Notes: generated by a model from the sequence alone, not told the origin. Positions 15,985 to 34,208 are shown, counted from the first letter of the stretch. The stretch: 64,000 bases of DNA from Alphaproteobacteria bacterium (GCA_050175015.1 JBFXJJ010000003.1:145998-209997), one strand, 5' to 3'. A program made the numbers and translations.

Positions 15985-16518
15985 TTAGCTTTTGTTAAGA
16001 AGGCTAGCTATTTGTTCTGCTGTGATTGTTTTTTTTCCGCCCCGTCTTTCTGGACCAGGATAATCAGCAAATTGTCTCCGCCTTCTGTCTGGGCCAAAAA
16101 AGGTTTTGGTTTTTACAAAAGGTCTTGGATTTTCGATTATAGTTTGAATTCTAGAAAGAAGAGCTTTGGTAGAGAAAGGCCTAACCAAAAATTCATTAAT
16201 GCCAGCATCACGAGCTTTAAAAACTTGCTCTTTGCTGGTTGCTTCGGAAGACATAATAATCGGGAGGTATGGACTTGGACTTTTCTGACTTTTTCTAATA
16301 TAGTTTACGAGTTCGATTCCGCCTTTTGGGGCTAAATCCCAAGACAAAATGAGAATATCAGGCAATTTTAGCTGCATAGCTTGAATAACATCTTCGCAGG
16401 TTTTGCATTCATAAACATCAGAAACACTAATATCAGAAAGTGCTTGGCGTGTAATCCGCCTCATGTTGTAGTTATTGTCAGCGACAATAACATGTAAATT
16501 ATCAATATTTGCGCTCAT
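15985..16518 (-). CDS. Single-domain response regulator (receiver) paralog with the same Arg-rich C-tail
   Basis: IVADNNYNMRRITRQAL...SWDLAPKGG...FGPDRRRRQFADYPGPERRGGKKTITAEQIASLLNKS. Tandem paralog of 15293..15838. Confidence 0.65.
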   Translation of the reverse strand: MSANIDNLHVIVADNNYNMRRITRQALSDISVSDVYECKTCEDVIQAMQLKLPDILILSWDLAPKGGIELVNYIRKSQKSPSPYLPIIMSSEATSKEQVFKARDAGINEFLVRPFSTKALLSRIQTIIENPRPFVKTKTFFGPDRRRRQFADYPGPERRGGKKTITAEQIASLLNKS

Positions 16519-16665
16519 TATTAAACCTAAAAAAATAAAAACACTAAATTATGTATAAAGTTTTAAATTAAGAATATTTGTTTATTATTTTTTATTATTT
16601 GGCTATTTTAATAATATAAAAATCAATTTTCAAGATATTTTATCACAACTACTAGCGAAATATTG

Positions 16666-16697
16666 TGCAAGAAGCACTAAATATACGCTTCTTGCAA
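16666..16697 (-). terminator. Hairpin downstream of xdhB (possible operon terminator, no clean U-run)
   Basis: 10-bp perfect stem tgcaagaagc/gcttcttgca with a 12-nt loop, ~50 nt beyond the xdhB stop. Confidence 0.3.
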
Positions 16698-16744
16698 CTA
16701 AAGACAACTTAAGGTAGATTGGTATTAATGTTATATAAAAATTA

Positions 16745-19093
16745 TTACTTTCTTATAACATTTTCTTTCATTCTTGTAATTGCTGCCAGAATTTTTTCTG
16801 GGGTTGCTGGCGGTTCAATCTCTGCTCTGAATTTATAATCACCAATACTGGCGATAGCGTCAGCAATTGCAAGCCAAACAGATATAGCCTGCATTATTGG
16901 TGGTTCGCCCGTTGCTTTTGAATGAAATATTGTGTCTTCTTTATTAGGTGAATTTTCTAAAAGTCTGACATTAAATTCTTTTGGAATATCACGGCTTACA
17001 GGAATTTTATAAGTTGACGGTGCGTGGGTTCTCAGGCGTCCTTCTTTGTCCCACCACAGTTCTTCCATAGTCATCCAGCCTAAACCTTGGACATATCCGC
17101 CTTCGACCTGCCCGAAATCAATCGCTGGGTTAAGAGAGTCGCCGCAATCGTGTAGAATATCCGCTCTTAAAACTCTGGTCTCGCCAGTCAGGGTATCTAT
17201 CGCAACTTCGGTGGCGCAGGTGCCATATGTAAAGTAATAAAAGGGGTGTCCTTGCATTTTTACGGGGTCGAAATAAATTTTAGGAGTTTTATAAAAGCCG
17301 TTTGACGACATAGAAACACGGTTCATATAACAAAGATTAGTAAATTCATTAAATGACATTACCGTATCTGCCGCTAAAACCTGATTGTTTTTGAAAACAA
17401 TCTTTTCTGTTTTGAAATGCTCTTTTGCAAAATCAATCATTTTGGTTTTTATTTTATACGCAGCATCTTTTATCGCCATACCATTCATATCGGCATCGGA
17501 AGAAGCTGCCGTTGCTGAGGTGTTAGGAACTTTATCGGTTCTGGTGGCATTTATTCTGATGTTTTCAATATCTACCTGAAAAATCTCGGCAACAACCTGC
17601 ATCATTTTCACTAAAAGACCTTGCCCCATTTCGGCGCCAGCTTGGTTAATTAGAATGCTGCCATCACGGTAAACGTGGATTAAGGCGCCAGCTTGATTCA
17701 AGAAAACCGCATTAAAAGAGATGCCGAATTTTAATGGGAATAAGGCTAAGCCTTTTTTGATAATGTCATTTTTAGCATTAAACTCTTTAATTTCCTGACG
17801 TCTTTTAACGATTTCGGCGGTTTTTTCAATATCTTCGAAAACTTCGCTGATAATATTATCGGTAATCTTTTGCCCGTAAGGAGTTACGTTGCGTTCTTCT
17901 TTGCCATAAAAGTTAGCTTTGCGGATTAAGATTGGGTCTTTTTTCAAATAAGAAGCAATGTGTTCTAAGCAGGCTTCAATTCCAATCATTCCTTGCGGGC
18001 CGCCAAAACCACGAAAAGCCGTGTTTGAAACGGTGTTGGTTTTGCATAAGAAGCCTTGCACTCTTACATCTGGCAGATAATAACAGTTATCAGAGTGGCA
18101 CAAAGCACGCTGGACAACAGGGGGAGACATATCGGCAACAATGCCCGATTTGGCAGCATAAATTAAATCAATGCCTTCAATCCGTCCATTGTCATCAAAG
18201 CCGACATCATATTTGACGAGGAAGTCGTGGCGTTTACCTGTAATAACCATATCATCATCACGGTTAAGACGCATTTTAACAGGCTTTTTGGTTTTCCAAG
18301 CAAGCAGAGCCGCAAAGGCTGCAAAAATGGTCGGCTGGCTTTCTTTGCCGCCAAAACCGCCACCCATACGGCGCATTTCAACGGTTATATGATTTTGAGG
18401 CAGACCTAAAACGTGCGAGACTCCCATCTGAGCTTCGGTTGGGTGCTGCGTTGAAATATAGATAATAAAGGTTCCATCTTCCAAAGGCGCCGCTACAGAA
18501 ATTTGGGTTTCTAGATAAAAGTGGTCTTGTCCGCCGATTTGAATTTGACCTTGGATACGGTTTTTTGCTTTTTCTAATGCCTTTTCATAATCGCCTCTAG
18601 CCATTACTTGCGGCTTGGTCAAAAAACTTTCTTTCTTTAAAGCATCTTCAATAGTTAAGATAGGTTCTAGAACTTCATAATCAACTTTAATTAGTTTGCT
18701 GGCTTCTTTTGCAGCTTTAATGGTGTTGGCAGCAATAATTGCTACGGGGTGTCCAACATATTCGGCATAATCTTCTGCTAGGGCAGGTTCATTTTTAAGA
18801 ATAGGACCAATATCGTTAACCCCAGGAATATCTTTAGCCGTCATAACAGCTTTTACGCCGTTTACTTTTAAAGCTTCCGAATAATCAATATTTTTGATTT
18901 TTGCATAAGCATAAGGACTTTGAAGAATATAACCTTGCAGGGTGTTAGGAAGCTCAGGCATATCGTCAACATAAATCGCTTCTCCCGTAACGTGAAGGTG
19001 AGCGCTTTCGTGAGCAACAGACTTATGAACGCCTCCGCTAATTTCAGATTTTAATTTATAGTCTTTATTTGCGTCTGATTTCATAATTCCCAT
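16745..19093 (-). CDS. xdhB: Xanthine dehydrogenase molybdopterin-binding subunit
   Basis: 782 aa. Aldehyde oxidase/xanthine dehydrogenase a/b hammerhead plus MoCo-binding signatures (GGGFGGKE, ...AFRGFGGPQG...). Overlaps the xdhA stop. Confidence 0.85.
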   Translation of the reverse strand: MGIMKSDANKDYKLKSEISGGVHKSVAHESAHLHVTGEAIYVDDMPELPNTLQGYILQSPYAYAKIKNIDYSEALKVNGVKAVMTAKDIPGVNDIGPILKNEPALAEDYAEYVGHPVAIIAANTIKAAKEASKLIKVDYEVLEPILTIEDALKKESFLTKPQVMARGDYEKALEKAKNRIQGQIQIGGQDHFYLETQISVAAPLEDGTFIIYISTQHPTEAQMGVSHVLGLPQNHITVEMRRMGGGFGGKESQPTIFAAFAALLAWKTKKPVKMRLNRDDDMVITGKRHDFLVKYDVGFDDNGRIEGIDLIYAAKSGIVADMSPPVVQRALCHSDNCYYLPDVRVQGFLCKTNTVSNTAFRGFGGPQGMIGIEACLEHIASYLKKDPILIRKANFYGKEERNVTPYGQKITDNIISEVFEDIEKTAEIVKRRQEIKEFNAKNDIIKKGLALFPLKFGISFNAVFLNQAGALIHVYRDGSILINQAGAEMGQGLLVKMMQVVAEIFQVDIENIRINATRTDKVPNTSATAASSDADMNGMAIKDAAYKIKTKMIDFAKEHFKTEKIVFKNNQVLAADTVMSFNEFTNLCYMNRVSMSSNGFYKTPKIYFDPVKMQGHPFYYFTYGTCATEVAIDTLTGETRVLRADILHDCGDSLNPAIDFGQVEGGYVQGLGWMTMEELWWDKEGRLRTHAPSTYKIPVSRDIPKEFNVRLLENSPNKEDTIFHSKATGEPPIMQAISVWLAIADAIASIGDYKFRAEIEPPATPEKILAAITRMKENVIRK

Positions 19094-20532
19094 ACCTCCG
19101 TAACTAATTCGGGTTTTGTAATTTGGGTATAAAGCCTTTCCAGCATATTCGCTGCAACGGTTGCTCGGTAATCGCCTGATGCTCTAAAGTCGCTTATGGG
19201 TTTAAAATCATCAGCAACGGCTTTTTTGGCATCTAAGAAAATGTCTTGGGTTACGTCTTTGCCATTAAGTGTTTTTTCAAGATTATAAGCAGGTTTGGGA
19301 ATTTCAGCCATACCGCCAAAGCCCGTTGTAAAATAAACTATTTTATTATTTTCAATTTTAAAGAAGAAAGCTCCGCAAACAGAAGAAATGTCTTGGTCGT
19401 GGCGTTTGGTAACTTTATAAACTTTGAATTGGAAACCTTTTTTTGGAATGGGAATCTTTATACTTCTGATAAATTCGCCTTCTTGTAAGGCAGTTTTACG
19501 ATAGCCTAAGAAAAATTCTTTAAGGGGAAGTTCTCTTGTTGCATCTTGCTTTTGTAAGTTTACGCTGGCTCCAAGAGCAATTAAAGATGGGGCAGAATCA
19601 CCAATAGGCGAAGCATTGCCGATGTTGCCGCCGATTGTTCCCAAATTGCGGATTTGGGTTGAACCTATTTTCCGTATTAATTTGCCATATTCGGGAATAT
19701 ATTTTTCAATTAAAGGCAGAGCCTTGACATAAGGAACGCTCGCACCAATTTCAATAAAATCAGAATTTTCGGTTAAAATATTGAGTTCGGGAATATCACA
19801 GGTGTGAATTACAACATCAAGTTTTCTATCTGCCTTAGTTACTAAAAGACCTAAATCAGTACCGCCTGCAAAAAGATAGGCACTGCTGTAATGATGATAA
19901 AGGGAACATAATTCTTTAAGGCTTTTAGGCGAAAAATAGGAAGTTTCATTATTGATTTCTAGGGTGTCTTGACGATTTCTAATCTGCTCAAACTTAGATA
20001 GAAGCTCGGCTTCATTACGGCTATACCAATCATCTTTTTTTCCACCAGTCCTTCTTGCAGCATCAATAATCGGGCGGTATCCAGTACAGCGGCATAAATT
20101 GCCCGCCAGCATTTCGTGGATCGTATCATCATCTTCATTACCTGTAACATCAGCGTGATACCACGCAAATAAAGACATTATGAAACCTGGGGTACAAAAA
20201 CCACATTGGCTGCCGTGTAGTTCATACATAGCTTGCTGCACAGGGTGAAGTTTGCCTTCTTTTGAAGCCAATCCCTCAACCGTTATCAGCATTTTGCCAT
20301 CAAGCTTAGGAACAAAAATTATGCAGCTATTGACCGCCTTATATTCAATTTTTCCATTAACAGGTTCTGCTAGAACAACAGTGCAGGCACCGCAATCCCC
20401 TTCAGCACAACCTTCCTTGGTACCATTTAGATTTTGATTTTTGCGCAAATATTCTAAAACCGTCGTCGTTGGCGGAAGATTAGAAATTTCGGTAAGCTCA
20501 CCATTTAATAAAAATCTTATTTTATTTGTCAT
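19081..20532 (-). CDS. xdhA: Xanthine dehydrogenase small subunit (2Fe-2S + FAD-binding)
   Basis: FLLNGE...CAEGDCGACTV and CGFCTPG/CRCTGY 2Fe-2S motifs, then a FAD-binding CO-dehydrogenase-type domain. Likely start MTNKIRF at 20532 with AAGGAG 7 nt upstream. Confidence 0.85.
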   Translation of the reverse strand: MTNKIRFLLNGELTEISNLPPTTTVLEYLRKNQNLNGTKEGCAEGDCGACTVVLAEPVNGKIEYKAVNSCIIFVPKLDGKMLITVEGLASKEGKLHPVQQAMYELHGSQCGFCTPGFIMSLFAWYHADVTGNEDDDTIHEMLAGNLCRCTGYRPIIDAARRTGGKKDDWYSRNEAELLSKFEQIRNRQDTLEINNETSYFSPKSLKELCSLYHHYSSAYLFAGGTDLGLLVTKADRKLDVVIHTCDIPELNILTENSDFIEIGASVPYVKALPLIEKYIPEYGKLIRKIGSTQIRNLGTIGGNIGNASPIGDSAPSLIALGASVNLQKQDATRELPLKEFFLGYRKTALQEGEFIRSIKIPIPKKGFQFKVYKVTKRHDQDISSVCGAFFFKIENNKIVYFTTGFGGMAEIPKPAYNLEKTLNGKDVTQDIFLDAKKAVADDFKPISDFRASGDYRATVAANMLERLYTQITKPELVTEVWEL

Positions 20533-20542
20533 TTTTACTCCT

Positions 20543-21883
20543 TTAAGCTCGTGGTTTTTGGAAGTTTCCATATCCACGTGCTACACAAATTCCGTCTTTG
20601 TGATCGTAAACTTTGCTACCTCTTACAAACGTCTGATATATTTTACCTTTAAAAATCATATTTTCAAATGGGGTAACTTTGCCCTTAGATAAAAAATCAT
20701 CGCCTTTAATAAGCCATTCATCAGCAGCATTAATTAAAACTATATCGGCATCTTTGCCAACTTTAATGGAACCCTTGCGGTCATCTAGTTTAAATTTTTT
20801 AGCAGTATTAAGAGAAGTTATTTCTGATAATTTCTTTAATGAAATTTTGCCTTTTAAATATCCTTCAGAAAACATATAAGGAAACAGGGTTCCAACTCCA
20901 GGAATCCCGCCATAAGCCTGCCAGATAGAACATTGTTTGCGTTCTTTAGGGCAGGGTGCGTGATCTGAGGTGATAAAAGATATTTTACCATTTTGAACAA
21001 GCTGCCACAATTCTTCTTTGTTATGATTTGGTTTTATGGGAGGACATATTTTAAGCGGCGCTCCAATTTTTTCAAAATCATCTAAGGTGAAAGCAAGATA
21101 ATGAGGACAGGTTTCGCCTGACAAATAAGGTTCATCAAGAAAAGACGCAGCTTTTGCTGTTCCAATATGAACAATGTGTAAGTCTGTTTGATATTTTTTT
21201 GCCAGAGATACAACTTTTTTTACAGCGGTAATTTCAGCTTCCTCAGGACGTGATTGAGAAAATTCCTTAGGTGAGTTGGATTCCTTGTTAACCTTTGCTT
21301 GATTGCAAACATCTTCATCTTCAGCGTGAACCATAACAATGCGGTCAAGTTCCTTAGCTGTTTTCAAAACCTCGTCAAGTTCGTCATACGAAACTTTAGG
21401 AAAAGTTTCCATACCAGAAAGCGTATAGGTTTTATATGCTGCCACATAAGGTGCAATTTCTTTCATATTTAAAGGAAAACCTTCAGTCATAGAAAGATGA
21501 CTTACTCCGCCGTGAAAAGCAAAGTCGATTATGGCTTTAGGTGAAACAATGCTTAATTTGTTTTCTAAATTGTTAAGACTAGTTACAGGAGGCAGAGAAG
21601 TGCAGGGCATATCAATGATAGTTGTTACTCCTCCAGAAGCTGCGGCACTTGTTCCTTGGAAAAAATCCTCTTGGGTTTCAAAACCTGGATCATTAAAATG
21701 AACGTGAGAATCTATTGCTCCAGGAAGAGCAAGCAAGCCTTTAGCCTCAACCGTATTTTTAGCATCAGGTAAGTCAGAGCCAATAGCGGCAATTTTGCCA
21801 TCTTTAACCAAAATATCGGCTAAAATGGTTTCTTCATTGCCCTCTATTAAGACTTCGGCTCCGCTAATTTTTAAATCATACAT
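20543..21883 (-). CDS. Cyclic amidohydrolase (allantoinase/hydantoinase/dihydropyrimidinase family)
   Basis: DSHVHFNDPGFE...GTSAAASGGVTTIIDMP metal-binding signature of the DHOase/allantoinase superfamily. 446 aa. Confidence 0.7.
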   Translation of the reverse strand: MYDLKISGAEVLIEGNEETILADILVKDGKIAAIGSDLPDAKNTVEAKGLLALPGAIDSHVHFNDPGFETQEDFFQGTSAAASGGVTTIIDMPCTSLPPVTSLNNLENKLSIVSPKAIIDFAFHGGVSHLSMTEGFPLNMKEIAPYVAAYKTYTLSGMETFPKVSYDELDEVLKTAKELDRIVMVHAEDEDVCNQAKVNKESNSPKEFSQSRPEEAEITAVKKVVSLAKKYQTDLHIVHIGTAKAASFLDEPYLSGETCPHYLAFTLDDFEKIGAPLKICPPIKPNHNKEELWQLVQNGKISFITSDHAPCPKERKQCSIWQAYGGIPGVGTLFPYMFSEGYLKGKISLKKLSEITSLNTAKKFKLDDRKGSIKVGKDADIVLINAADEWLIKGDDFLSKGKVTPFENMIFKGKIYQTFVRGSKVYDHKDGICVARGYGNFQKPRA

Positions 21884-21892
21884 TTTTACCCT

Positions 21893-24460
21893 CTATTTTT
21901 TAATATAACCCATAGGAAGATTAAAACGCTGTTTGCCGTCAAAGACTCTGAAAGCGCCTGCAACCGCAGAAGCCGTTGGCACTAAGCCGATTTCGCCTAA
22001 ACCTTTAGCACCGTAGGGACCATATTGATCAATCTCTTCAATCGGAATTACTTTCACTTCGGGTGTTTCTTTTACTCTTAAGATACCAATTTTTCCAAAT
22101 TTAGTGTGTACGGGATAACCATCTTTCCATTCACAGTCTTCGGTCAAAGCATATCCTAAACCCATATGGACAGCACCTTCTACTTGCCCTTCATAAAGGG
22201 TTTTGTTGATGATTCTTCCAGAATCGTGAGCGGCGATAACTTTTTTGATTCTACCTTCATCATCTAAGATAACGCATTGTGTCGCATAGCTGTAAGAATA
22301 ATGGGCAAAAGGTTTTTCAGGAAGTGTTCCTTTAAATGAATTATTCGTAAAATCACAAATCCAGTGTCCTTGATATTCCTTGCCAACAAGATTTTTTAAA
22401 CCATATTTATTAAGGTCTTGATTGAACTTCTGACAGGCATCAAGCATAGCATTTCCTAAAAGGGAGGTTCCTCTTGATGAGGTTGTCATACCGGTTGAGG
22501 CTTCAGAGCAGGTTTCATTTTTAACCGTTACAATTTCAGGGCTAAGTCCTGTTTCTTCACAAAATACTTGTAGAGCGACGGTGTGTACGCCCTGTCCCAT
22601 TTCGGTCCAGCCGTGATAAAGTTCAATTTTATCTTCAGCTTTGACAATTATTTTTACCAAGCTTTCATCAATACCGCCGTTGCCGACGCCAGTATTTTTC
22701 ACTCCGCAGGCAATGCCTGCAAATTTTGCGTTTTTGAAGTCATCTTTAACCGCAAGAAGCGTTTTCTTAAGTCCAACGCCTTGTTCTAAAATTTGTCCTG
22801 ATGTGATCATTGAACCAACATCAAGCGCATTATCATAACGGAACTGCCATCTGTCGAAGCCTCCTTGATGACATAAGTCATCAACGCAGGATTCCATAGC
22901 AAAGTTGGATTGGTTAACGCCAAATCCACGCATAGCTCCGCAAGGGACATTGTTAGTATAGATAGCCTTGGCTTCAATATCGAGATTAGGAACTTCGTAA
23001 GCTCCAGAAGAATGTCCTGCCGCACGTTCCATAACTTTCATACCAACAGAGGCATAAGCTCCAGTGTCGCCCAAAATATTGGCTTTTAATGCGGTGAGTT
23101 TGCCATTCTTGTCGCAAGCTAAGGTATATTCCAGTTTCATAGGGTGGCGTTTGGGGTGCATAAGCATTGATTCTTCTCGTGACAGCCTAACCCTTACAGG
23201 GCATTGGCAGAGCATCGAGTATACTGCTGCGTGTCCTTGAACGGTTAAATCTTCTTTACCGCCAAAAGCACCGCCATTTTGAACTTGAATAACATTAATG
23301 TTATTTTCTTCAAGACCTGTTATTAAGGAAATCTGTTTGCGGTCGACATAGACCCCTTGTCCTTGAGAATAAACCGTCAGTTTGCCTTCATCTGTAGGCA
23401 GAGCAACCGCACATTCGGTTTCTAGAAAAGCGTGTTCAATACGTTGGGTTGTCCAAACACCTTTTGTAACATATGCCGCATTTTTTATGGCATTTTCAGG
23501 ATCGCCGATCTTAAGCGAGCTTACAGATAGGACATTGTTTTCATCCCCGTCGTGAACTATTGGAGCATTGGGTAAAATGGCATCTTCCATAGAGCAAACA
23601 GGTGTTAAAACTTCATAGTCAACTTTTATCAATGAAGCTGCAAAACGAGCGGTTTCTTCACTGTCGGCAACCACTCCTGCAATCACATCTCCAATATAAT
23701 TGGTAACATCGCCCTCTTTTATCATAAATGGCCAGTCTAGCCTTACTAATCCAACTTTATTTTTAGTTGGCAGATCTTTTGCGGTTATAATCCTTACAAC
23801 GCCCTTAACTTTAAGAGCTTCCGAGGCATCAATGTTTAAAACCCTAGCTTTGGGATATTCTGAAAATTTAAGCGCTCCGAATTTCATACTCTCAAAAGTC
23901 ATATCAAAAACATAAGGACGCTTTCCTATAACCGCCATTGCGGTTTCATATTTTGAGGTTCGGCTTCCTATTTTGCCATCTTCTTTAGGAATAGGAGGAG
24001 CTTCTCCTCTTAGAATTTCTGCTGTAAAAAGAACGGCATCAATAATTTTTTTATAGCCCGTACAGCGGCAGATATTGCGGTTAATCGCAGCTTTTATATC
24101 ATCAATACTGGGATTAATATTATCTTTTAGAAGGCAGTATGCACTCATAACAATTCCAGGGGTGCAAAAGCCACATTGAATTCCGCCTTTTTCAACAAAA
24201 GCCCTAATAAAAGCCTGTTTAAAATCTTCAGGAAGCCCTTCCGCTGTTATAACTTCTTTCCCTGCAATTTTGCTTAAAGGCGTAACACAGGAAAGAGTTG
24301 CTTTGCCATCGACACACACCGTGCAGGCTCCGCAACTTCCCTGAGAACAGCCATCTTTAGGGGTGGTATCACCCCTAAAAAGACGTAAGTAGTTTAACAA
24401 AGAAATTTTGCTATCGCCTGAAAATTTTATTTTTTCTCCATTTACAATAAATTCCAGCAT
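21893..24460 (-). CDS. Second molybdenum hydroxylase with N-terminal 2Fe-2S ferredoxin domain fused to MoCo subunit (E. coli XdhD-like)
   Basis: N-terminal CSQGSCGACTV and CGFCTPG/CRCTGY motifs. The remainder is homologous to Mo-binding large subunits (GGAFGGKE). No FAD domain. 855 aa. Confidence 0.75.
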   Translation of the reverse strand: MLEFIVNGEKIKFSGDSKISLLNYLRLFRGDTTPKDGCSQGSCGACTVCVDGKATLSCVTPLSKIAGKEVITAEGLPEDFKQAFIRAFVEKGGIQCGFCTPGIVMSAYCLLKDNINPSIDDIKAAINRNICRCTGYKKIIDAVLFTAEILRGEAPPIPKEDGKIGSRTSKYETAMAVIGKRPYVFDMTFESMKFGALKFSEYPKARVLNIDASEALKVKGVVRIITAKDLPTKNKVGLVRLDWPFMIKEGDVTNYIGDVIAGVVADSEETARFAASLIKVDYEVLTPVCSMEDAILPNAPIVHDGDENNVLSVSSLKIGDPENAIKNAAYVTKGVWTTQRIEHAFLETECAVALPTDEGKLTVYSQGQGVYVDRKQISLITGLEENNINVIQVQNGGAFGGKEDLTVQGHAAVYSMLCQCPVRVRLSREESMLMHPKRHPMKLEYTLACDKNGKLTALKANILGDTGAYASVGMKVMERAAGHSSGAYEVPNLDIEAKAIYTNNVPCGAMRGFGVNQSNFAMESCVDDLCHQGGFDRWQFRYDNALDVGSMITSGQILEQGVGLKKTLLAVKDDFKNAKFAGIACGVKNTGVGNGGIDESLVKIIVKAEDKIELYHGWTEMGQGVHTVALQVFCEETGLSPEIVTVKNETCSEASTGMTTSSRGTSLLGNAMLDACQKFNQDLNKYGLKNLVGKEYQGHWICDFTNNSFKGTLPEKPFAHYSYSYATQCVILDDEGRIKKVIAAHDSGRIINKTLYEGQVEGAVHMGLGYALTEDCEWKDGYPVHTKFGKIGILRVKETPEVKVIPIEEIDQYGPYGAKGLGEIGLVPTASAVAGAFRVFDGKQRFNLPMGYIKK

Positions 24461-27055
24461 TTACCTGTCCTTCATACTAAGAGCGCCAGTAAAGCACATC
24501 TTCGTACAATAGGTACAGCCAACGCATTTATTAGGATCAAATACAGGTTTGCGGTTAGCATCAAGTGTTACTGCTTGATAACCACAGTTAGTACAATTTC
24601 CGCAAGATAAGCAAAGATCTTGGTTGCAAGTTGGAATTTGCTTGGTTGCAGGAAGATCCATAAAGTCAGTAATAGGGTTAGGCAAAGCACAGCCGATAAG
24701 TTCATTAACAGATTTAATTCTTTTAGCTTCTAATAAGTGAGAAAGTCCAGAATTAAGTTCTTTTATAATATGAACGCCGTGTTTCATTGCAATGGAGCAG
24801 AATTGAACATTTCTAACGCCAAGGGCAAGGAAGTTTGCTGCGGCTCTGTAATCCATTGGACCGCCGTTGCCTGAAATGAAGACGCCGAGAGGTGCGGCAT
24901 TAGCTAATGTTAAATAGCTGATAGGGAGCACGCCCTCGCCAGCCATACCAGCAACAACACCTTCGTCCCATTTACTATTGCCATCTTTTCTTGGTCTAAA
25001 GCCAAGAGTAGGGAAAGAGTTAGCAAGAGTTATTCCTACTTTCGATTTAGGATAATTTGCCATTGCGCCTTTAACCGCATTAATAATAGGAACGATGGAG
25101 GTAACCGCTGCGGTTAATTTGAAAATTTTAGGAATGTCAGGATTGCCTGCTTCTAAGACATATTCAATAATTTGTTGAGTTAGAGCCGCATTCTGGGAAA
25201 CAATATCCCCTTCGGTGCCATCACCGCCTTGAGGGCAGGAAAGGCTGTATTCAACCCCGATAACGCCTGCATCTTCAAGTTTTTTAGTGTTCGACTGCCA
25301 GCCTTTGCGGTCTGATTCTTCGTGTCCCGTAACAGGACCGCCGGTTGATGCCATTGTTAATCTGTCAGGATATTTTTTCCTTAGCTCTTCAACTTCACGG
25401 CAAACTCTTTCTAAGGCGTGATCAGAAACGTTATCGCAGTTAGCAAAAGTTGATTTAGTATAAGCAAACATATATCCAGCAGGAACGTGAATTGGAATAC
25501 CATCAAATGATGTTTTAAGAACACCGCCTGTCCAGCCATTTTGATATGCAAGCTTCATCTGATCGATACCGTCGGTGTGAGGCGCTGCTGACAAAATGAA
25601 AGGAGATGACATTTTAAAGCCGAAGAAATCACAAGTTAAATCAACAGGATTGGTATTAATACCTTCAACAGAGGTACGGCTTTTAGCTCTTTGTTTAACT
25701 AAAACCGAGGTTTTTTTCAAACTTTCATCGGTTTTTGTGCCATTTAAAAGAGCGTCAATATCGAGAGCTGCATTCTTACCAGAAGCAACAGCTTCAACAG
25801 CGGTTGAACCACCGTGAACACAATCGCCAGCATAAAATATTTTAGGATTTTTATCACTTTGGGTTTTATGACTGCCGCCAAGATATGATGCCTTGCCGCC
25901 AATAGCTAAAATAACTAGGTCAAAATCAGGACGTTTTACAGATGTTCCTGCAATATCAACTAACTTGCCTTCGTTGTTGTTAGTCGTTTTACAGGTTGTA
26001 AGCGTCTTTTTGCCATTTTCTTCAGTTATTTTTTCAACTCTGGTTCTGGTTGTAATATCAATTTTAGCGTCAAGTAAAAGCTGTCTTTCGTGTGATGTTA
26101 AACGCATATCTGCAACCGTTCTTCTAACAAACATTTCAACTTGAGAAGAACCAAGTCTTTTAGCTTCAGTTGCACAGTCTACAGCCACGGCTCCGCCGCC
26201 AATAATAGCAACGTTACCTTTGGTTTTATATTTTGCGGTATCTTTCAAATATTCCGTGAAAGGAAGCGCATTTTCAAGTTCGCCGTCAACTCCTAAGACA
26301 GAAAAATCAGGTTCGCCAACCGCAATCAAAACAGCATCAAAACCTTCCTTTAATAAACTTTCAGCATCTTCAACTTTAGTGTTTGATTTTAAAGTAATAT
26401 GGCTGGCTTCAAGCGTGAACTCATAATCTGCTTTGATGGCATCATCAGGCAGACGGCAATCTGGAATAAGAGAAGCGGCACCGCCTAAAACGTTTCTTTC
26501 ATCAAAAAGGGTGATTTCATAGCCTTTTCTTCCTAGGAAAGCAGCAGCTCCAATGCCCGCAGGTCCAGCGCCGATAACTGCTACTTTTCTGCCGTTTTTC
26601 GCTGGTTTTGCAGGAGCTTTAAGAACGCCTAAGTCTCGAGCTTTTTTGATGACGGTTGCTTGAATAGCAGGAATATTAATAGCTTTATCAAAGTTTTTCT
26701 TAGAGCAAGCACCCATACAAAGATTATCAGGGCAGATAATGCCGCAAACGTGTCCCAAAGGGTTTGCTGCTAAAATTTCTTTAGCCGCTCTGGCTATATC
26801 TTGTGGGGCTCCTTGTTTTGCTGCCATAATAAAGTCAGCAGGAGAACAGTGAACAGGGCAGCCTTCAAGACAAGGCTTATCTGCGCAGTATAAACATCTA
26901 TCAATTTCAGCTTGCAGCTGAGCATCAGTTAAATAAAGATTATTAGTCAAAATTTGCTCCTTAAAAATTATTAAGATTTTTTTATTAGAAACGATTCCAA
27001 AGATTCTTTGCAGCTTCCATAGATTTTGCCGCAGCTTCTTTTTCATCAACATCAA
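24461..27055 (-). CDS. Dihydropyrimidine-dehydrogenase-like flavo-iron-sulfur oxidoreductase (YgfK/PreT-PreA fusion type)
   Basis: N-terminal Cys cluster (CLYCADKPCLEGCPVHC). Two dinucleotide folds (VAVIGAGPAGIGAA and VAIIGGGAVAVDCA). DHODH-like barrel. C-terminal 2x[4Fe-4S] ferredoxin (CLSCGNCTNC...CVGCTYCTKMC). 864 aa. Confidence 0.7.
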   Translation of the reverse strand: MMLMKKKLRQNLWKLQRIFGIVSNKKILIIFKEQILTNNLYLTDAQLQAEIDRCLYCADKPCLEGCPVHCSPADFIMAAKQGAPQDIARAAKEILAANPLGHVCGIICPDNLCMGACSKKNFDKAINIPAIQATVIKKARDLGVLKAPAKPAKNGRKVAVIGAGPAGIGAAAFLGRKGYEITLFDERNVLGGAASLIPDCRLPDDAIKADYEFTLEASHITLKSNTKVEDAESLLKEGFDAVLIAVGEPDFSVLGVDGELENALPFTEYLKDTAKYKTKGNVAIIGGGAVAVDCATEAKRLGSSQVEMFVRRTVADMRLTSHERQLLLDAKIDITTRTRVEKITEENGKKTLTTCKTTNNNEGKLVDIAGTSVKRPDFDLVILAIGGKASYLGGSHKTQSDKNPKIFYAGDCVHGGSTAVEAVASGKNAALDIDALLNGTKTDESLKKTSVLVKQRAKSRTSVEGINTNPVDLTCDFFGFKMSSPFILSAAPHTDGIDQMKLAYQNGWTGGVLKTSFDGIPIHVPAGYMFAYTKSTFANCDNVSDHALERVCREVEELRKKYPDRLTMASTGGPVTGHEESDRKGWQSNTKKLEDAGVIGVEYSLSCPQGGDGTEGDIVSQNAALTQQIIEYVLEAGNPDIPKIFKLTAAVTSIVPIINAVKGAMANYPKSKVGITLANSFPTLGFRPRKDGNSKWDEGVVAGMAGEGVLPISYLTLANAAPLGVFISGNGGPMDYRAAANFLALGVRNVQFCSIAMKHGVHIIKELNSGLSHLLEAKRIKSVNELIGCALPNPITDFMDLPATKQIPTCNQDLCLSCGNCTNCGYQAVTLDANRKPVFDPNKCVGCTYCTKMCFTGALSMKDR

Positions 27056-28316
27056 TCGTTAGATGTTTGTTTTCCATTAGGACTTTTCCAGCACAAATTG
27101 TGGTATCAACCTGAGCAGAATTAAAGCCAAAAACTAAATGTCCTAAGACATTGCTGGCATCAAGAGGGGTAGGTGGGTATTGATCCAGCATTACAATATC
27201 AGCGGCTCCGCCTTCTTTAAGTTCACCTAAACCGATGTTGTTCCAGATACGGTTAGCAATTTTAGGATTGTTAAACCATAAGGCAGATGCTCCTTCAACA
27301 AAGCCCGCGGAAGGATTTCTTTGGTTGTATTTTTGCGCCCAGATGGCACAGCGAACTTCTTCACGCATATCAACTGTCATTGCATCTGTTCCGAGACCAA
27401 CGAGAATGCCTTTTTCAAACATTTTAACCGTGTTGGCAATTCCAACAGCATTATTCAAATTAGACTGAGGATTGTGAACAACCATAGTATTCGTTTTTGC
27501 TAAAAGATCTAATTCATTGTCATTGGTATGAACGCAGTGAACACATATGGTGTCTTTGCCTAGAACGCCCATTTTGTTGAAGCGTTCAACAACTCTTAAA
27601 CCGTGTTCTTTGACGCAGGCATCTTCATCACTTTCAGCTTCTGCCGTGTGAACGTGAAAACCTGTTTTTAGATCTTTAGCGAAAGAAACGCATTTTTCTA
27701 AAGTTTTATCACTTACGGTAAAAGAGGCGTGAAGTCCGAATAACGCCGTTAGCTGCTCATCATTTTCTTTCTGGCAGCGTTTAATAAAGTTGACGTTTTC
27801 CTCAATACCTTCTTCGGCAATTTTTTCACCGTCTCTATCGGAAACTTCATAGCATAAACAAGAGCGCAAACCAGTTTCTTTAACAGCTTCGGCAATGGTA
27901 TCAAGAGAACCTGTAATTGCAAAAGGACTGGCGTGATGATCGATTAAAGTTGTGGTTCCGCTTTTTATAGCGGCGATAAGGGGGAATAAGGCACTATAGT
28001 AGGTGTCTTCTAGTGAAAGTTTGGTATCTAAACGCCACCAAAGGTTTTTAAGCACTCCTCCAAAATCATAAGCTGGTTCAGCTTTGCCAAGACCTCTTAC
28101 TAAGGTGCTGTAAAAATGCATATGAGCATTAATGATTCCTGGGATAACGATTCTGCCGTCGGCGTTTATTTCTTTATCAAAAGAGCCTTTGATTTCATCA
28201 TCTTTGGCGATTTTAACAATCTTATTATTTTCAACCAAGATAGAATGATTAGGCAAAACGCGACCGTTTTCACCACCTGTAATAACAAGTGCATTGCGAA
28301 CGATTAAATTGGACAT
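26985..28316 (-). CDS. SsnA-like amidohydrolase (guanine/cytosine deaminase-chlorohydrolase family)
   Basis: HxH metal motif (INAHMHF) and TIM-barrel amidohydrolase layout. Probable start MSNLIVRNALVI at 28316 with a GGAG RBS. Confidence 0.65.
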   Translation of the reverse strand: MSNLIVRNALVITGGENGRVLPNHSILVENNKIVKIAKDDEIKGSFDKEINADGRIVIPGIINAHMHFYSTLVRGLGKAEPAYDFGGVLKNLWWRLDTKLSLEDTYYSALFPLIAAIKSGTTTLIDHHASPFAITGSLDTIAEAVKETGLRSCLCYEVSDRDGEKIAEEGIEENVNFIKRCQKENDEQLTALFGLHASFTVSDKTLEKCVSFAKDLKTGFHVHTAEAESDEDACVKEHGLRVVERFNKMGVLGKDTICVHCVHTNDNELDLLAKTNTMVVHNPQSNLNNAVGIANTVKMFEKGILVGLGTDAMTVDMREEVRCAIWAQKYNQRNPSAGFVEGASALWFNNPKIANRIWNNIGLGELKEGGAADIVMLDQYPPTPLDASNVLGHLVFGFNSAQVDTTICAGKVLMENKHLTIDVDEKEAAAKSMEAAKNLWNRF

Positions 28317-28387
28317 ATTTTTCTCCAGATAAAAATATTTTGAACTAAATATTTTATTTGGTTTATCCAAAATTTACAACGATTTTC

Positions 28388-29749
28388 TCAATTTTGTTTA
28401 TTCTCGTCATCATCTTCCTGTGAAGGTGCTGCTACTTCCTTCAATCTTTCTTTTTCATCAGCAGGAAGAAACTTATCCGCTAAAGCCCAATACAAAGATT
28501 GTTCACAAAAAGTCTTTGAAACCGCATAAGAAATCATAGATACGGCGAGTAGAGAGATGGTTGTTTTTTGGTCGCTGGTCATTTCCATAACAATAACAGC
28601 TGCAGTTATTGGAGAGTGGACAACGCTAGAGAAATAGCCTGCCATACACATAATGATTATAACAGATTTTGTCATATCTGGAAAAAAGTCAGCGATATTA
28701 GCGCCAATGCCTGCTCCAATAGATAGTGATGGCGCAAAAATGCCGCCAGGAATACCACTTATATATGAAAGAATGGTTGCAAGAAATTTATAAAAACCAA
28801 ACCATAAGGTTTCAATATCTTGCCCTTGAATTAACTTACAAGCTTGTTCATATCCTGTGCCAAAAGTAAGATTACCAGAAAGTCTTCCTATGATTGCAAT
28901 TAAAAGACCGCAGATCGCTGCAAAAATTACAGGACGGGCTTTTGTGAAAGCACTTAGCTTTTTGCCAAGAACTTTATCGGTATGGATAATGGTATAATTA
29001 AAGATTGTGCCGATAAGACCGCAGACTATACCGCATAAAATTACTAGATAGACCCAGTTTTCGTGAGAATCTATTAAAAGATTACTGCGTCCGAAATAGG
29101 TATAGTTGCCAGTAATAGACATAGAAACAATACCAGCAATAACAACGGTTGTTAAAACGATACCGCTGGTTTTGGTTTCAAAGGAACGGCTTAATTCTTC
29201 AATGGCAAAAACAATTCCTGCTAATGGAGTATTAAATGCTGCTGCAACTCCTGCGGCACCTCCTGCCAGAATTAATGATTTTCTAGTCTTGTAACTAGAA
29301 ATATGAAGGAAGCGTCCTAAAAAAGACATAATTGACGCTCCAATCTGAACCGTAGGACCTTCTCTGCCAATTGAAGCTCCGCCACAAAGACCAAGCATTG
29401 TTATAAAAATTTTACCGCAGGCTATTTTCATAGATAAGAGTTTAAAGCATTCGGCTTTTTTGCGAATGTGCATTGCTGCGATAGTCTGTGGAATGCCGCT
29501 GCCTTCAGATCCTTGGAAAAAAGACTTAGTTAAATAAACACCAAAAGCCATAAAAGATGGTGTTATGATTAAGGCAAGCCAATTATTTTTTTCCAGCATT
29601 TTAAAGAAAAGAGTGTCGGCAAAAAAACTGCCTTTGGCAAAAAAAACGGCAACAATCCCGACTGCCATAGCGCCAAGCCAATACACAAGGCGATATAACC
29701 ATATATTGGGTGATACCCACCACCGGTGATTATGCCTGAAAATTATCAT
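28388..29749 (-). CDS. ClC family voltage-gated chloride channel/H+-Cl- antiporter
   Basis: GSGIPQ, GREGP and GxFxP selectivity-filter motifs. About 10-12 TM helices. Confidence 0.8.
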   Translation of the reverse strand: MIIFRHNHRWWVSPNIWLYRLVYWLGAMAVGIVAVFFAKGSFFADTLFFKMLEKNNWLALIITPSFMAFGVYLTKSFFQGSEGSGIPQTIAAMHIRKKAECFKLLSMKIACGKIFITMLGLCGGASIGREGPTVQIGASIMSFLGRFLHISSYKTRKSLILAGGAAGVAAAFNTPLAGIVFAIEELSRSFETKTSGIVLTTVVIAGIVSMSITGNYTYFGRSNLLIDSHENWVYLVILCGIVCGLIGTIFNYTIIHTDKVLGKKLSAFTKARPVIFAAICGLLIAIIGRLSGNLTFGTGYEQACKLIQGQDIETLWFGFYKFLATILSYISGIPGGIFAPSLSIGAGIGANIADFFPDMTKSVIIIMCMAGYFSSVVHSPITAAVIVMEMTSDQKTTISLLAVSMISYAVSKTFCEQSLYWALADKFLPADEKERLKEVAAPSQEDDDENKQN

Positions 29750-29991
29750 TTTGAAATGTTTGTTTTCTTTGTTATTTTTTAGTCTTACACAACTAAAGAC
29801 AAGGTATATTACTTAAAATAATCAATGTCAACCAAGCTTTGAGAGTTTTTTTAAATGTTTTCGTATTAAAATTTTTTAAGAGATACAGCAAAGTTTTAGG
29901 ATAAAATTGTTATAGATTTTAAGGCGCGGTATTTTTTAGATTGAATAGTAATTTTTTTGTTTTTGTTAGAAGCAAATAACTTGGCAAATTA

Positions 29992-31137
29992 CTAAATTCT
30001 AACTCCTAATAGGCGGATTAAAGCAGTTTCGCAAGGAACAGATTCATTTAAGGCAATCATATGACCTAGGCCTTGAGCTTCGAGTTTACCAATTTCGTCA
30101 ACGACTAATATATCGGCATTTTTGCGGGCATCTATAATTGTTTTTTTAGCATAACTCCAAGCATCATCATAAAAGTCAAACCAGAGTCCATTTTTTGCAG
30201 GAGTTTCTCGGCGGCGAGCTAGTGGTATATGTTCACCTGTTGCGACATTCTCAACGTCATATCCTGAAGAATCAAAATCACCATTAAGCGAAGGTTGTAA
30301 AATGCCGCCAACTTTAAAACCTTGTTGCGATAATTCCGAAACAACACGTTTTAAAAAGCTGGTTTTTCCGCTTCTTTTCTCGCCTTTTATTTCTAAAGTA
30401 AAAGGAGGAACGTCAGGAAGAAGAGGCTTAATTTCCTCCCAATTATCTTTAGTATTAAGGTTAAAACTTCCAAAATCATTAGAGTATGGTAAGGCAAAGC
30501 CAATTTTATCCATAATATTATCAAAACGAGCTGTTTGAGGGGTTTCTTTTAAAACGTCTAATGCCGTTGTTTGAGACAACCAGACAGGCTGAATCTTAGT
30601 ATTGTTTTTTTCATAGAATAACGCATTATGATTGCTGTTATAAGCGGCATTACAAAGAGTGTGCCAAGAAGATATTTGGCAGGATATACGATCAACGGCG
30701 TGAAATAAAATGCCTTTTTCCAAATCATTTTTAAAAAAGCGTATTCCGGCCTGAACCGAAGAGAATGGTCCTTGTTCATAATCGTTATTAACGACAATAG
30801 AGAGATTTAAACTGCCGAGTTTAACATCGCACGGGGGCGTCAAACCATTTAAAAAGCTAAGTTCTTCAAAATAAGAGGATATATGATGCCCGAGCACGAT
30901 AACCGCTTTTTTTCCTCCGGCTCTACGAAAAACATCAAGCAGCAACATAATTAATGGCCGGTCTTGATGTTTTAAGAGCCCCTTAGGATATCCCATACGG
31001 CTTGATTTACCTCCTGCCATAATAATTAATGGCGGTAAATCATTAGCACTAATCAAGGATTTTATTGATGTTCTCACTTCTTCCCAGTGTGATAACATTA
31101 TGTTCCTTTGTTTTTCTGCTAGTTTCACGAGAGCCAA
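29992..31137 (-). CDS. Fusion: MocA/YgfJ-like molybdenum-cofactor nucleotidyltransferase + P-loop NTPase (THEP1/MobB/YqeC-like)
   Basis: N-terminal LIIMAGGKSSRMGYPKGLL (MobA-like NTP-transferase). C-terminal Walker A GEKRSGKTSFLKR and Walker B LVVDEIGKLE. Confidence 0.6.
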   Translation of the reverse strand: MALVKLAEKQRNIMLSHWEEVRTSIKSLISANDLPPLIIMAGGKSSRMGYPKGLLKHQDRPLIMLLLDVFRRAGGKKAVIVLGHHISSYFEELSFLNGLTPPCDVKLGSLNLSIVVNNDYEQGPFSSVQAGIRFFKNDLEKGILFHAVDRISCQISSWHTLCNAAYNSNHNALFYEKNNTKIQPVWLSQTTALDVLKETPQTARFDNIMDKIGFALPYSNDFGSFNLNTKDNWEEIKPLLPDVPPFTLEIKGEKRSGKTSFLKRVVSELSQQGFKVGGILQPSLNGDFDSSGYDVENVATGEHIPLARRRETPAKNGLWFDFYDDAWSYAKKTIIDARKNADILVVDEIGKLEAQGLGHMIALNESVPCETALIRLLGVRI

Positions 31138-32590
31138 TACCTGTCAGCAAAAGACCAATGTTTTCATTAGAGTTTATTAATCCTTTAGTTGCCATTTCGA
31201 TAACAGCGGCAACGCTAGCGGTTCCTGTAGCCGAAACATTAATATTAGTTGCTTTTTTGGTAAGCTTGTTTGCTTTATCTAAAGTTTTTTCATCTGCGAT
31301 TAATGGTAAACCTCCAGATTCAAGCATACCGATTACGACTTCTAAGCCATCATACGTCGTATCGTCTAAGATGCCTTCCGCTATGCTTTCAGGAACATTG
31401 TCAGCCCAAGCTTTAAAGAAATTACTGCGCTGTGCAGCAACATCAAGTAAGACTTTTTGTAAGGCTTGGTTTGATGAAAAGTTAGAAGACAGCTCTTTTG
31501 CAAAACTGTTAAGCTCTTGAGGATATTTTTCTAAAATATCTTTAGGATCTATGTCAGTTTCAACGGCGCTTTTTAAATTTTCAGCTAAAGTCACAGCTCC
31601 TTTTAAAGAAGCTTCTTTCAATATCGCAAAGTAAGATTTGGCAAGCGGATAGCAACTTGCAGTCTGCACAGTATAAAATCTAGGCAGTTTTTTTATTATT
31701 CCAAGTTTTAAAAGATTTTGTATGCCATTGATCATAGATTTAGCTAGGCCGCCGCCTCCAATTTGAACAATAAAGGCATCAATGTCTGTTTGATATTTTT
31801 CCATATCAAAGAAAAACTCATAGGCTAAAGGTTCTGCTCCCTCAATGCTTGACCAAATATCATAACCATAGCAAGAAAAGGGAACAAAATTAAGCTTGTT
31901 CAAAGCTTCTCTAAAACGGATATTGCAGGGATCTCCTTCACCAACTTGTCCCTCGCGAGATACTTTTACGACTTTGGCATCTAAATTGGTTAAAAGATTT
32001 TCAATTTTGCTGTCTACATGTTCTGGAACAAAAGTATAAAGAGGATAATCAAAAGCTTTTGCCGCAGCAGAGGCACCTAAAGCTGCATTGCCGCAACTGA
32101 AAATAGCTAAAGGCTTTTTATGTCCGCCTTTTAACATTCTTAATGTTTCCAAGTAGATAATAGAACCGGCTAAATGACGGGATTTATGTGAACCCATAAG
32201 CTGCAGAGTTTCGTTTTTAGCAAAAATATTGCAATCAGCCTTTATTGATTTAGCAAGCTCGTCAGCTTTGAATAATGGCGTTCTAACAAATCCTTTGCTT
32301 GTATTTTTTTCACACATTTTGCTGGCAGTTTTTACCATTTTCTGCCATTCATCAGATTTATTATGAACATTAGCCAAGTGCCAGCTTCCAAGTAGTTCTT
32401 TAAAAGCATTAAAGGACAATTCGCCGCTGTTATAACGATTTCTAATTTCTTCAATTAAATTTTGAGGAAAATCACCATCTTCAAATTTCAAAACAAAAGG
32501 ATGAGACGCTGCCTCGGTACTTTCGGGGCAGCGCAATAATCCTTCTTCCAAATTATATGATTTTCTACAAATTGGACAGTAAAGTTTCAT
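31049..32590 (-). CDS. PLP-dependent fold-type-II enzyme (threonine-synthase-like) with N-terminal Cys-rich zinc-ribbon-like motif
   Basis: GSHKSRH lysine motif (compare tGSFKDRg). Begins CPICRKSYNLEEGLLRCPE. 513 aa. Its start is 1 nt from the upstream gene stop. Confidence 0.5.
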   Translation of the reverse strand: MKLYCPICRKSYNLEEGLLRCPESTEAASHPFVLKFEDGDFPQNLIEEIRNRYNSGELSFNAFKELLGSWHLANVHNKSDEWQKMVKTASKMCEKNTSKGFVRTPLFKADELAKSIKADCNIFAKNETLQLMGSHKSRHLAGSIIYLETLRMLKGGHKKPLAIFSCGNAALGASAAAKAFDYPLYTFVPEHVDSKIENLLTNLDAKVVKVSREGQVGEGDPCNIRFREALNKLNFVPFSCYGYDIWSSIEGAEPLAYEFFFDMEKYQTDIDAFIVQIGGGGLAKSMINGIQNLLKLGIIKKLPRFYTVQTASCYPLAKSYFAILKEASLKGAVTLAENLKSAVETDIDPKDILEKYPQELNSFAKELSSNFSSNQALQKVLLDVAAQRSNFFKAWADNVPESIAEGILDDTTYDGLEVVIGMLESGGLPLIADEKTLDKANKLTKKATNINVSATGTASVAAVIEMATKGLINSNENIGLLLTGIGSRETSRKTKEHNVITLGRSENINKILD

Positions 32591-32591
32591 C

Positions 32592-34058: not shown

Positions 34059-34208
34059 AAATTATTAGCTCCAGAAATAAAAATTAAATACTGCGAATGC
34101 AGTGTATTAAGAAAATTAGAACTTAAATATAATAAGATGAGATAAAATAAAGACAAGCTTATTTTACACGTGTCAATAAAACTATTTTTTATAAAAAAAT
34201 TTATAATA

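Follow-up and report, generated by a model that had tools for sequence, protein, structure and literature searches.

A reductive route for the breakdown of urate, proceeding through 2,8-dioxopurine, was established in 2025 in Escherichia coli and in Clostridia by two preprints (10.1101/2025.04.24.650524; 10.1101/2025.05.19.654654). Urate is converted to 2,8-dioxopurine either by the E. coli molybdenum enzyme XdhD with its flavin adenine dinucleotide (FAD) partner YgfM, or by the FAD-less, SelD-dependent XdhAC (DOPDH) of Clostridium sporogenes. The ring is reduced by YgfK (DOPOR) or, in Clostridioides difficile, by the PydA-like UacX, and is opened by SsnA and then HyuA, while YgeW/UacY, YgeY and YgeX finish the conversion to pyruvate. 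Here, we describe a 64,000-nucleotide stretch of DNA from a 213-kb contig of an alphaproteobacterial metagenome-assembled genome (GCA_050175015.1, JBFXJJ010000003.1:145998-209997; hereafter the window), in which the gene for a flavin- and iron-sulfur (FeS)-containing reductase of the dihydropyrimidine dehydrogenase (DPD) type abuts the gene for a FAD-less molybdenum hydroxylase. With a probability of roughly 70%, the two adjoining genes code for successive enzymes of this reductive uric-acid (2,8-dioxopurine) pathway, within one minus-strand operon of an uncultured alphaproteobacterium.

Several properties of the published enzymes bear on this comparison. The activity of YgfK was detectable solely when it was coupled to SsnA, and ygfK and ssnA are co-localised in many organisms (2025 pathway preprints). 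C. sporogenes XdhAC makes no use of NAD(P)H and acts specifically on urate/2,8-dioxopurine, not on xanthine, and for E. coli XdhD-YgfM an NADH-level reductant suffices for the reaction. Both C. sporogenes XdhAC and the C. difficile 'XdhD' are described without a FAD subunit (10.1101/2025.04.24.650524; 10.1101/2025.05.19.654654); C. difficile, moreover, pairs its FAD-less XdhD with a UacX that lacks a FAD domain, and Li et al. infer an external donor (e.g. ferredoxin) for both. The active-site signature of DOPDH, as given by the Dodd laboratory in bovine numbering, is F1009V and A1078T/S. Li et al. 2025 also describe Chloroflexota without YgfK or UacX, in which an F420-type reductase is used instead.

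Two abutting genes in a minus-strand operon

Both long open reading frames (ORFs) that a sequence-only reading of the window had singled out are present on the minus strand, at 21893-24460 (855 aa) and 24461-27055, and their junction is as it was described: the TAA stop codon of the reductase gene (24463-24461) directly abuts the hydroxylase ATG at 24460, leaving 0 intergenic bases, which reflects operon packing or translational coupling. The length of 864 aa given for the reductase did not hold. Because this ORF runs 71 nt into the SsnA gene and an AAGGAG motif lies 7 nt before a TTG at 26950, a start yielding 829 aa is preferred; this is also the length of NCBI record MGD9638076.1 and of the family. 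The true start is thus TTG 26950, and the 864-aa ORF is an over-extension.

The two genes belong to a run of ten genes that all lie on the minus strand and are separated by short spacers or by none, spanning 34058 to 16745 (Table 1). In order of transcription, these encode two PALP-domain enzymes (488 and then 513 aa), a MocA-like/NTPase fusion, after which a 242-nt gap follows, a ClC protein, SsnA, the DPD-like reductase, the 855-aa molybdenum enzyme, a cyclic amidohydrolase, XdhA and XdhB. SsnA lies 34 nt upstream of the reductase gene when counted from the TTG start, and the cyclic amidohydrolase gene starts 9 nt past the end of the XdhAC-like gene. An upper-pathway set of molybdenum dehydroxylase, ring reductase, SsnA and hydantoinase-type amidohydrolase is contiguous at 20543-28370. 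A scan of 16000-35000 for promoters and terminators found promoter-like sites no commoner than in shuffled sequence and no convincing intra-operon terminator.

The full DPD layout previously proposed for the reductase was borne out by Pfam and NCBIfam, by alignment to pig DPD and by a fold search. The protein comprises an N-terminal 2x[4Fe-4S] region (Fer4_20), FAD (Pyr_redox_2) and NAD(P) folds, a PreA/DHODH-like flavin mononucleotide (FMN) barrel (residues 472-862 if counted along the 864-aa ORF) and, at the C-terminus, a further 2x[4Fe-4S] domain. Its best solved relative by sequence is pig DPD (E 1.8e-61), and when the AlphaFold model (predicted local distance difference test score, pLDDT, 78.7, with the C-terminal FeS domain modelled at low confidence) was searched with Foldseek, the top 39 PDB matches were all DPD (E about 1e-52). 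In the alignment to 1gt8, spanning residues 15-757 and 741-819 of the DPD-like protein, all 8 N-terminal and 8 C-terminal cluster cysteines are kept, and so are the residues that correspond to Cys671, Asn609 and Asn736; N668 and T737 of the pig enzyme are replaced by Ser. The five-domain layout is complete, with four [4Fe-4S] clusters, sites for FAD, NAD(P)H and FMN, and the catalytic Cys. This domain order and the cluster cysteines are shared with bacterial PreT/PreA as well as with pig DPD (1gt8), but the 829-aa protein is ~200 aa shorter than the mammalian enzyme and stands in a purine-catabolic, not a pyrimidine-catabolic, context. Equivalog-level similarity to PreA/PreT (202 bits against the PreA cutoff of 335), an intact uracil pocket and a PydB/PydC context are lacking.

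The protein had also been taken to be YgfK-like. Our searches group it instead with DPD of the PydA/PreAT type: the YgfK model TIGR03315 scored 155.8 bits against a cutoff of 835.3 and matched only the GltD-like half (model positions 442-845), so that neither a full-length match nor the YgfK domain order is present. YgfK and the 829-aa protein have in common the FMN barrel, Fer4_20, the FAD/NAD(P)H module, a 2x[4Fe-4S] domain, adjacency to SsnA and the proposed reaction. Their domain order, however, is permuted, with the barrel N-terminal in YgfK but placed behind the flavin module in the 829-aa protein. The alignable portion is limited to the GltD-like part (29% identity), and weak alignments put the N-terminal region of YgfK onto the barrel of the DPD-like protein. 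By its published description, C. difficile UacX, a short isoxanthine reductase, likewise combines a PydA/PreA-type FMN barrel with FeS clusters, is encoded in an SsnA cluster and substitutes for YgfK, as proposed for the 829-aa protein. UacX is nevertheless described without a FAD/NAD(P)H module and is presumed to depend on ferredoxin, whereas the 829-aa protein has a full PreT-like module and should use NAD(P)H directly. The conserved SsnA adjacency within a urate cluster that marks the SsnA-coupled reductases YgfK and UacX is found here too, and by analogy we propose that the 829-aa protein is a 2,8-dioxopurine reductase corresponding to these enzymes.

For the 855-aa hydroxylase, Pfam agrees with the earlier description of a protein with 2Fe-2S and molybdenum cofactor (MoCo) domains and no FAD domain: Fer2_2/Fer2_3, Ald_Xan_dh_C (a/b-hammerhead), MoCoBD_1 and MoCoBD_2 are present, and FAD_binding_5 is not. 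The protein passes the TIGR03311 (Se_dep_XDH) model with 892.4 bits against a cutoff of 830.45 over residues 2-850, and displays the trait of that family, a fused 2x[2Fe-2S] and MoCo chain without a FAD domain or a FAD subunit of its own. The Prokaryotic Genome Annotation Pipeline (PGAP) names it 'selenium-dependent xanthine dehydrogenase'. Its earlier label, 'XdhD-like', is right insofar as the protein is a FAD-less molybdenum hydroxylase, but it is not an XdhD orthologue, as its score of 202 bits with the XdhD model TIGR03313 falls short of the 1101.9 cutoff, it shares 24% identity with E. coli XdhD and it has no adjacent YgfM; the two would nonetheless share the proposed reaction and pathway position. 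The closest PDB entries are the FAD-less Desulfovibrio MOP enzymes (1sij/1dgj), which have the same 2Fe-2S and MoCo architecture. MOP is an aldehyde oxidoreductase, whereas the 855-aa protein keeps the purine-hydroxylase Glu and Arg and reaches 477 bits with NF045668 (molybdopterin-dependent aldehyde oxidoreductase; cutoff 1100).

The motifs GGAFGGKED (GGxFGGKED in the family), GAMRGFG and GLGE are found in the 855-aa protein, GMTTSSR occupies the position of ATAASS in xanthine dehydrogenase (XDH), and equivalents of the purine-hydroxylase Glu/Arg/Glu residues are kept. The A1078 equivalent, here and across the XdhAC family, is presumably Thr, with bovine numbering carried over through the window's XdhB. 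The published descriptions of C. sporogenes XdhAC and of the C. difficile 'XdhD without YgfM' resemble this protein in a single chain of 2x[2Fe-2S] and MoCo domains without FAD and in clustering with SsnA and a ring reductase; those enzymes come from Bacillota hosts, whereas the 855-aa protein is encoded in an alphaproteobacterial genome. On this analogy, we propose that the 855-aa enzyme is a urate-to-2,8-dioxopurine dehydroxylase (DOPDH).

The absence of a FAD subunit, on which the sequence-only reading had laid weight, is the normal state across the TIGR03311/XdhAC family. A stand-alone YgfM/CoxM-type gene was indeed not found in the window, where the only YgfM-like match lies inside XdhA. 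The broader statement that no FAD subunit gene is present does not stand as worded, since a FAD-bearing XdhA, paired with its own XdhB, is encoded 1.3 kb downstream of the molybdenum-enzyme gene. A YgfM-type pairing of the 855-aa enzyme with the FAD domain of this XdhA was considered and rejected, as XdhA has its own 2Fe-2S domains and its gene overlaps that of XdhB, as in two-subunit XDH.

Gene neighbourhoods of the reductase and the hydroxylase

The ~830-aa DPD-like family comprises 1398 proteins at E<=1e-30, from many phyla and with 51-70% identity, and at least 566 DPD-like loci were confirmed among GTDB species representatives. ORFs were called in 83 loci and labelled with the proteins of the window and E. 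coli reference proteins. The neighbourhoods of 82 DPD-like loci were examined, and adjacency was counted in the 60 that are flanked on either side by 1.5 kb or more, with at least 50% identity defining an XdhAC orthologue. Of these 60 loci, 45 have SsnA as the same-strand neighbour of the DPD-like gene, and 51 have it anywhere in the locus. XdhAC orthologues are neighbours in 3/60 and present anywhere in 6/60, and an XdhD-type enzyme with YgfM is also present in 6/60. Of the 36 loci with 8 kb or more on either side, 28 show no molybdenum enzyme of the one type or the other.

The order SsnA, DPD-like, XdhAC with gaps of 2-4 nt is common only to the window and four Bdellovibrionota/Oligoflexia loci (L010, L011, L012 and L017). 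In gut alphaproteobacterial relatives (e.g. Acetobacter sp. CAG:977), YgeW and YgeY intervene between the DPD-like and XdhAC genes, and XdhAC is not among the neighbours of the DPD-like homologues closest to the window protein (68-70%). Seen from the hydroxylase, the closest XdhAC homologue (59% identity, L085) occurs with a YgfK-type reductase and SsnA directly after it; two further XdhAC-homologue loci carry a 1093-aa YgfK-like protein (L086) and a 651-aa FeS protein resembling the N-terminal part of YgfK (L087). A distant DPD-like gene lies on the strand opposite XdhAC in L088, and the pair in L044 is also on opposite strands. The clusters of relatives hold YgeW, YgeY, YqeA and YgeX, or a pair of pyridoxal phosphate (PLP) enzymes like that of the window; YgeW and YgeY are carried by L001, L002, L085, L086 and L088.

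When the reductase type (DPD-like or YgfK) is set against the molybdenum-enzyme type (XdhAC or XdhD-YgfM), all four combinations occur, that of E. coli being YgfK with XdhD-YgfM. The best hits of the window's DPD-like gene do not match those of its XdhAC gene in pattern, and the histories of the two are therefore discordant. Fusions of a DPD-like or YgfK protein to XdhAC were not found in the top 120 homologues of each, whose lengths are 807-864 aa and 845-880 aa. From these comparisons, the two genes behave as exchangeable pathway modules and not as obligate redox partners. Because all four combinations of enzyme types occur, the link between the two genes is best read as a relay of the product of one enzyme to the other as its substrate.

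The DPD-like/SsnA pair is found in many Chloroflexota (Anaerolineales), and in several of them XdhD-YgfM lies close by; the Chloroflexota loci with the pair are L015, L018, L022, L026-L028, L036, L038-L041, L048, L049, L061, L064-L070, L075 and L080.

A proposed reductive urate route and its alternatives

The identities of the genes, their domains and conserved catalytic residues, the operon layout and the conserved pairing of the DPD-like gene with SsnA are direct observations, around which the following route can be proposed. XdhAB would convert hypoxanthine and xanthine to urate, and the XdhAC-type 855-aa enzyme would take the 6-oxo group off urate to give 2,8-dioxopurine. In the DPD-type enzyme, NAD(P)H would then supply electrons that reach FMN by way of FAD and four [4Fe-4S] clusters, and the enzyme would reduce the pyrimidine ring of this product, its conserved Cys (equivalent to pig Cys671) being the likely proton donor. 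SsnA would hydrolyse the unstable reduced six-membered ring at once to ureidomethyl-hydantoin, which the allantoinase-like amidohydrolase would convert to 2,3-diureidopropionate. This enzyme is a reasonable candidate for the last step because ureidomethyl-hydantoin is allantoin plus one carbon, and by analogy we propose that it is the functional equivalent of HyuA, opening the hydantoin ring.

The locus is most probably a variant of the recently described pathway; the lack of a FAD subunit is in itself ordinary for the XdhAC family. What is distinctive is that a DPD-type reductase, full-length and NAD(P)H-linked, stands where YgfK or the short UacX would be expected, along with the allantoinase-like ring opener, the PLP pair where YgeX would be and the conventional XdhAB in the same operon. 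Hundreds of related loci show the further DPD-type enzyme combination, and the ~830-aa DPD-like/SsnA pair, widespread in uncultured phyla including Chloroflexota, would be a useful metagenome marker for urate/purine degradation. The compact three-gene cassettes of SsnA, DPD-like and XdhAC genes are places to study how a FAD-less XdhAC is reduced.

A number of points weigh against the urate-pathway assignment. The substrates of all the enzymes here are assigned from homology and context through the two 2025 papers, and the likeness of the 855-aa protein to C. sporogenes DOPDH is one of published description and family model. At the position equivalent to F1009, the 855-aa protein has Asn or Val according to gap placement (BLASTP, MAFFT), so that this half of the signature is ambiguous. 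The proposed route names no electron donor for XdhAC. YgeW/UacY, YgeY, YqeA and YgeX were not found in the 64-kb window by tblastn with the E. coli proteins or by hidden Markov models (HMM), and the same holds for selD, yqeB and yqeC in searches with NCBIfam, Pfam and tblastn. The lower-pathway set of YgeW or UacY, YgeY and YgeX is thus missing from the window, with two other PLP enzymes there instead. The amidohydrolase resembles allantoinase and dihydroorotase and is no orthologue of HyuA (27% identity to E. coli HyuA). It clears the cutoffs of the allantoinase and pyrC_multi models alike and has a 55% homologue, from the same JGI (Joint Genome Institute) sample as L001, that lies among housekeeping genes. 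A urate/xanthine permease was likewise not found in the window with NCBIfam, Pfam and tblastn.

The sequence-only reading had predicted an electron-transfer pair. In a fuller form of this idea, the NAD(P)H/FAD/[4Fe-4S] module of the DPD-like protein would dock onto the 2Fe-2S domains of the XdhAC-like enzyme and replace YgfM, so that one complex would carry out a four-electron reduction of urate. We consider this unlikely, although the abutting stop and start codons and the recurrence of the compact gene order in the four Bdellovibrionota/Oligoflexia loci are in its favour, as are the YgfK- or DPD-type FAD/FeS protein found in each XdhAC cluster seen here and the sufficiency of an NADH-level reductant reported for E. 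coli XdhD-YgfM. C. sporogenes XdhAC, moreover, is described as not using NAD(P)H, and direct transfer retains a small share of the probability. Pathway neighbours, however, are expected to co-occur in one cluster anyway, and specific support for a complex did not emerge: direct adjacency is rare, two genes intervene in the gut alphaproteobacterial relatives, the genes lie on opposite strands in L088 and L044, fusion proteins are missing among the top 120 homologues of either protein, and the DPD-like family is also found with XdhD enzymes that have a YgfM of their own. The combination of a FAD-less XdhD with a FAD-less UacX in C. difficile further argues for an external carrier such as ferredoxin (Li et al.). 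A related possibility, also unlikely, is that XdhAB and XdhAC exchange electrons, by which xanthine would be isomerised to 2,8-dioxopurine at zero net redox cost.

Could the 855-aa enzyme instead be an oxidative, selenium-dependent xanthine dehydrogenase, with the DPD-like/SsnA pair acting on another purine-derived substrate? The equivalog name of TIGR03311, the PGAP annotation and the conserved Glu/Arg/Glu triad would all suit such an enzyme, yet the operon already has a complete conventional XdhAB, which would make a second XDH redundant. The protein also fits the published description of C. sporogenes XdhAC (fused FeS and MoCo domains, no FAD, Mo domain at residues 307-839), which is specific for urate/2,8-dioxopurine, and the presumed Thr at the A1078 position fits the reported DOPDH signature; this alternative thus appears very unlikely. 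The least probable reading is a Pyd-type route, with the DPD-like protein as a uracil/thymine reductase, the cyclic amidohydrolase as its dihydropyrimidinase and the molybdenum enzymes as unrelated purine-oxidising neighbours. The closeness to pig DPD, the retained catalytic Cys and two pyrimidine-binding Asn, the PreA and PreT annotations in public sources and the amidohydrolase one gene downstream, past the XdhAC-like gene, speak for it. They are outweighed by the sub-cutoff PreA score, the two Ser replacements, an amidohydrolase that falls under the dihydropyrimidinase cutoffs (259 against 393 bits) and the failure to find a beta-ureidopropionase in the window, as well as by the ties of the family to SsnA, a marker of the urate pathway, and to clusters with YgeW, YgeY and XdhAC. 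Of a reductive pyrimidine/hydantoin route with the adjacent amidohydrolase, as had been suggested earlier, the reductive ring opening survives; the likely substrate is 2,8-dioxopurine, the conserved partner is SsnA, and the allantoinase-like enzyme would act one step later. Consecutive steps of the reductive urate pathway are hence the preferred account of the two abutting genes.

Accessory genes and other features of the window

Table 1. Genes of the minus-strand operon, with positions counted from the first nucleotide of the window.
Feature	Coordinates	Strand	Evidence
DPD-type flavo-FeS reductase, 829 aa	24461..26950	-	start site, Pfam, NCBIfam, pig DPD alignment, fold search, SsnA adjacency
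FAD-less molybdenum hydroxylase, 855 aa, TIGR03311 family	21893..24460	-	TIGR03311, Pfam, motifs, PDB relatives, PGAP name
SsnA amidohydrolase	26985..28370	-	NF005540 541 bits vs 444; TIGR03314 498 vs 455.5; 36% identity to E. coli SsnA
Cyclic amidohydrolase, allantoinase/dihydroorotase type, 446 aa	20543..21883	-	TIGR03178 369 vs 358; pyrC_multi 284 vs 279
XdhA, conventional XDH small subunit, 2x[2Fe-2S] + FAD	19081..20577	-	TIGR02963 576 bits vs 467; Pfam FAD_binding_5 + CO_deh_flav_C
XdhB, conventional XDH MoCo subunit	16745..19093	-	TIGR02965 1148 bits vs 849.5
MocA/YgfJ-like nucleotidyltransferase + NTPase_1/DUF2478 fusion	29992..31137	-	Pfam NTP_transf_3 + NTPase_1; TIGR03310 weak
ClC-type channel or exchanger	28388..29749	-	Pfam Voltage_CLC, 304 bits
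PLP enzyme, fold type II, ThrC-like, 513 aa	31049..32590	-	Pfam PALP
PLP enzyme, CysK/CBS-like, 488 aa	32592..34058	-	Pfam PALP; closest PDB entries CBS and CysK

At the start of the operon, a divergent second PLP enzyme (513 aa in the window and 329-426 aa elsewhere, ~24% identical) comes, in every case, directly after the CysK/CBS-like PLP enzyme of ~488 aa. The pair lies at 31049-34058 (-) in the window, at 5269-8296 in L001, 793-3238 in L085, 4294-7068 in L086 and 3586-6247 in L088. Orthologues of the 488-aa enzyme at 56-73% identity were found in L001, L008, L056, L057, L062, L085, L086 and L088; for the 513-aa enzyme, L001 has an orthologue (51%), and L086 and L088 have relatives (24%). 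Reductive-urate clusters in which no YgeX orthologue is seen contain the pair repeatedly, and it may replace or extend the diaminopropionate-lyase step of YgeX; it is not mentioned in the accessible portions of the two 2025 pathway papers.

The MocA/YgfJ-like fusion, whose true start is probably downstream of 31137, is conserved next to the PLP pair in L001 (4146-5288) and, judging from its domains, probably has a role in the maturation of MoCo (cytosine dinucleotide). Homologues of YqeB, YqeC and XdhC were not found in the window, and the fusion may be the only cofactor-maturation gene of the operon. A Cloacimonetes homologue of the cyclic amidohydrolase adjoins MocA-like and XdhC genes; this homologue and the 55% homologue named above belong to the loci L089 (8001-9341) and L090 (8001-9335). 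The presence of a gene for a ClC-type chloride channel or H+/Cl- exchanger inside a purine-catabolic operon, 17 nt upstream of SsnA, is a further feature of the locus.

Outside the operon, an ORF of 1405 aa at 50-4267 (+) has no Pfam or NCBIfam match. The same is true of four tandem paralogous ORFs at 48807-56398 (+), of 706, 414, 694 and 676 aa, which share 23-29% mutual identity and signal-peptide-like N-termini and lie in DNA of slightly higher local GC (about 0.40). In an Rfam scan of the whole window, purine, xanthine and MoCo riboswitches were not found, and the sole match was an ffh small RNA (RF01793, 40.3 bits) at 10234-10284 (+), just upstream of the ffh gene. At 44688-47406 (+), MurD comes after a MurL-like epimerase (UDP-MurNAc-L-Ala-L-Glu epimerase; 465 bits, the cutoff of the Xanthomonadales equivalog being 700), which suggests that an alternative peptidoglycan route, adding L-Glu and then epimerising it, may operate in this alphaproteobacterium.

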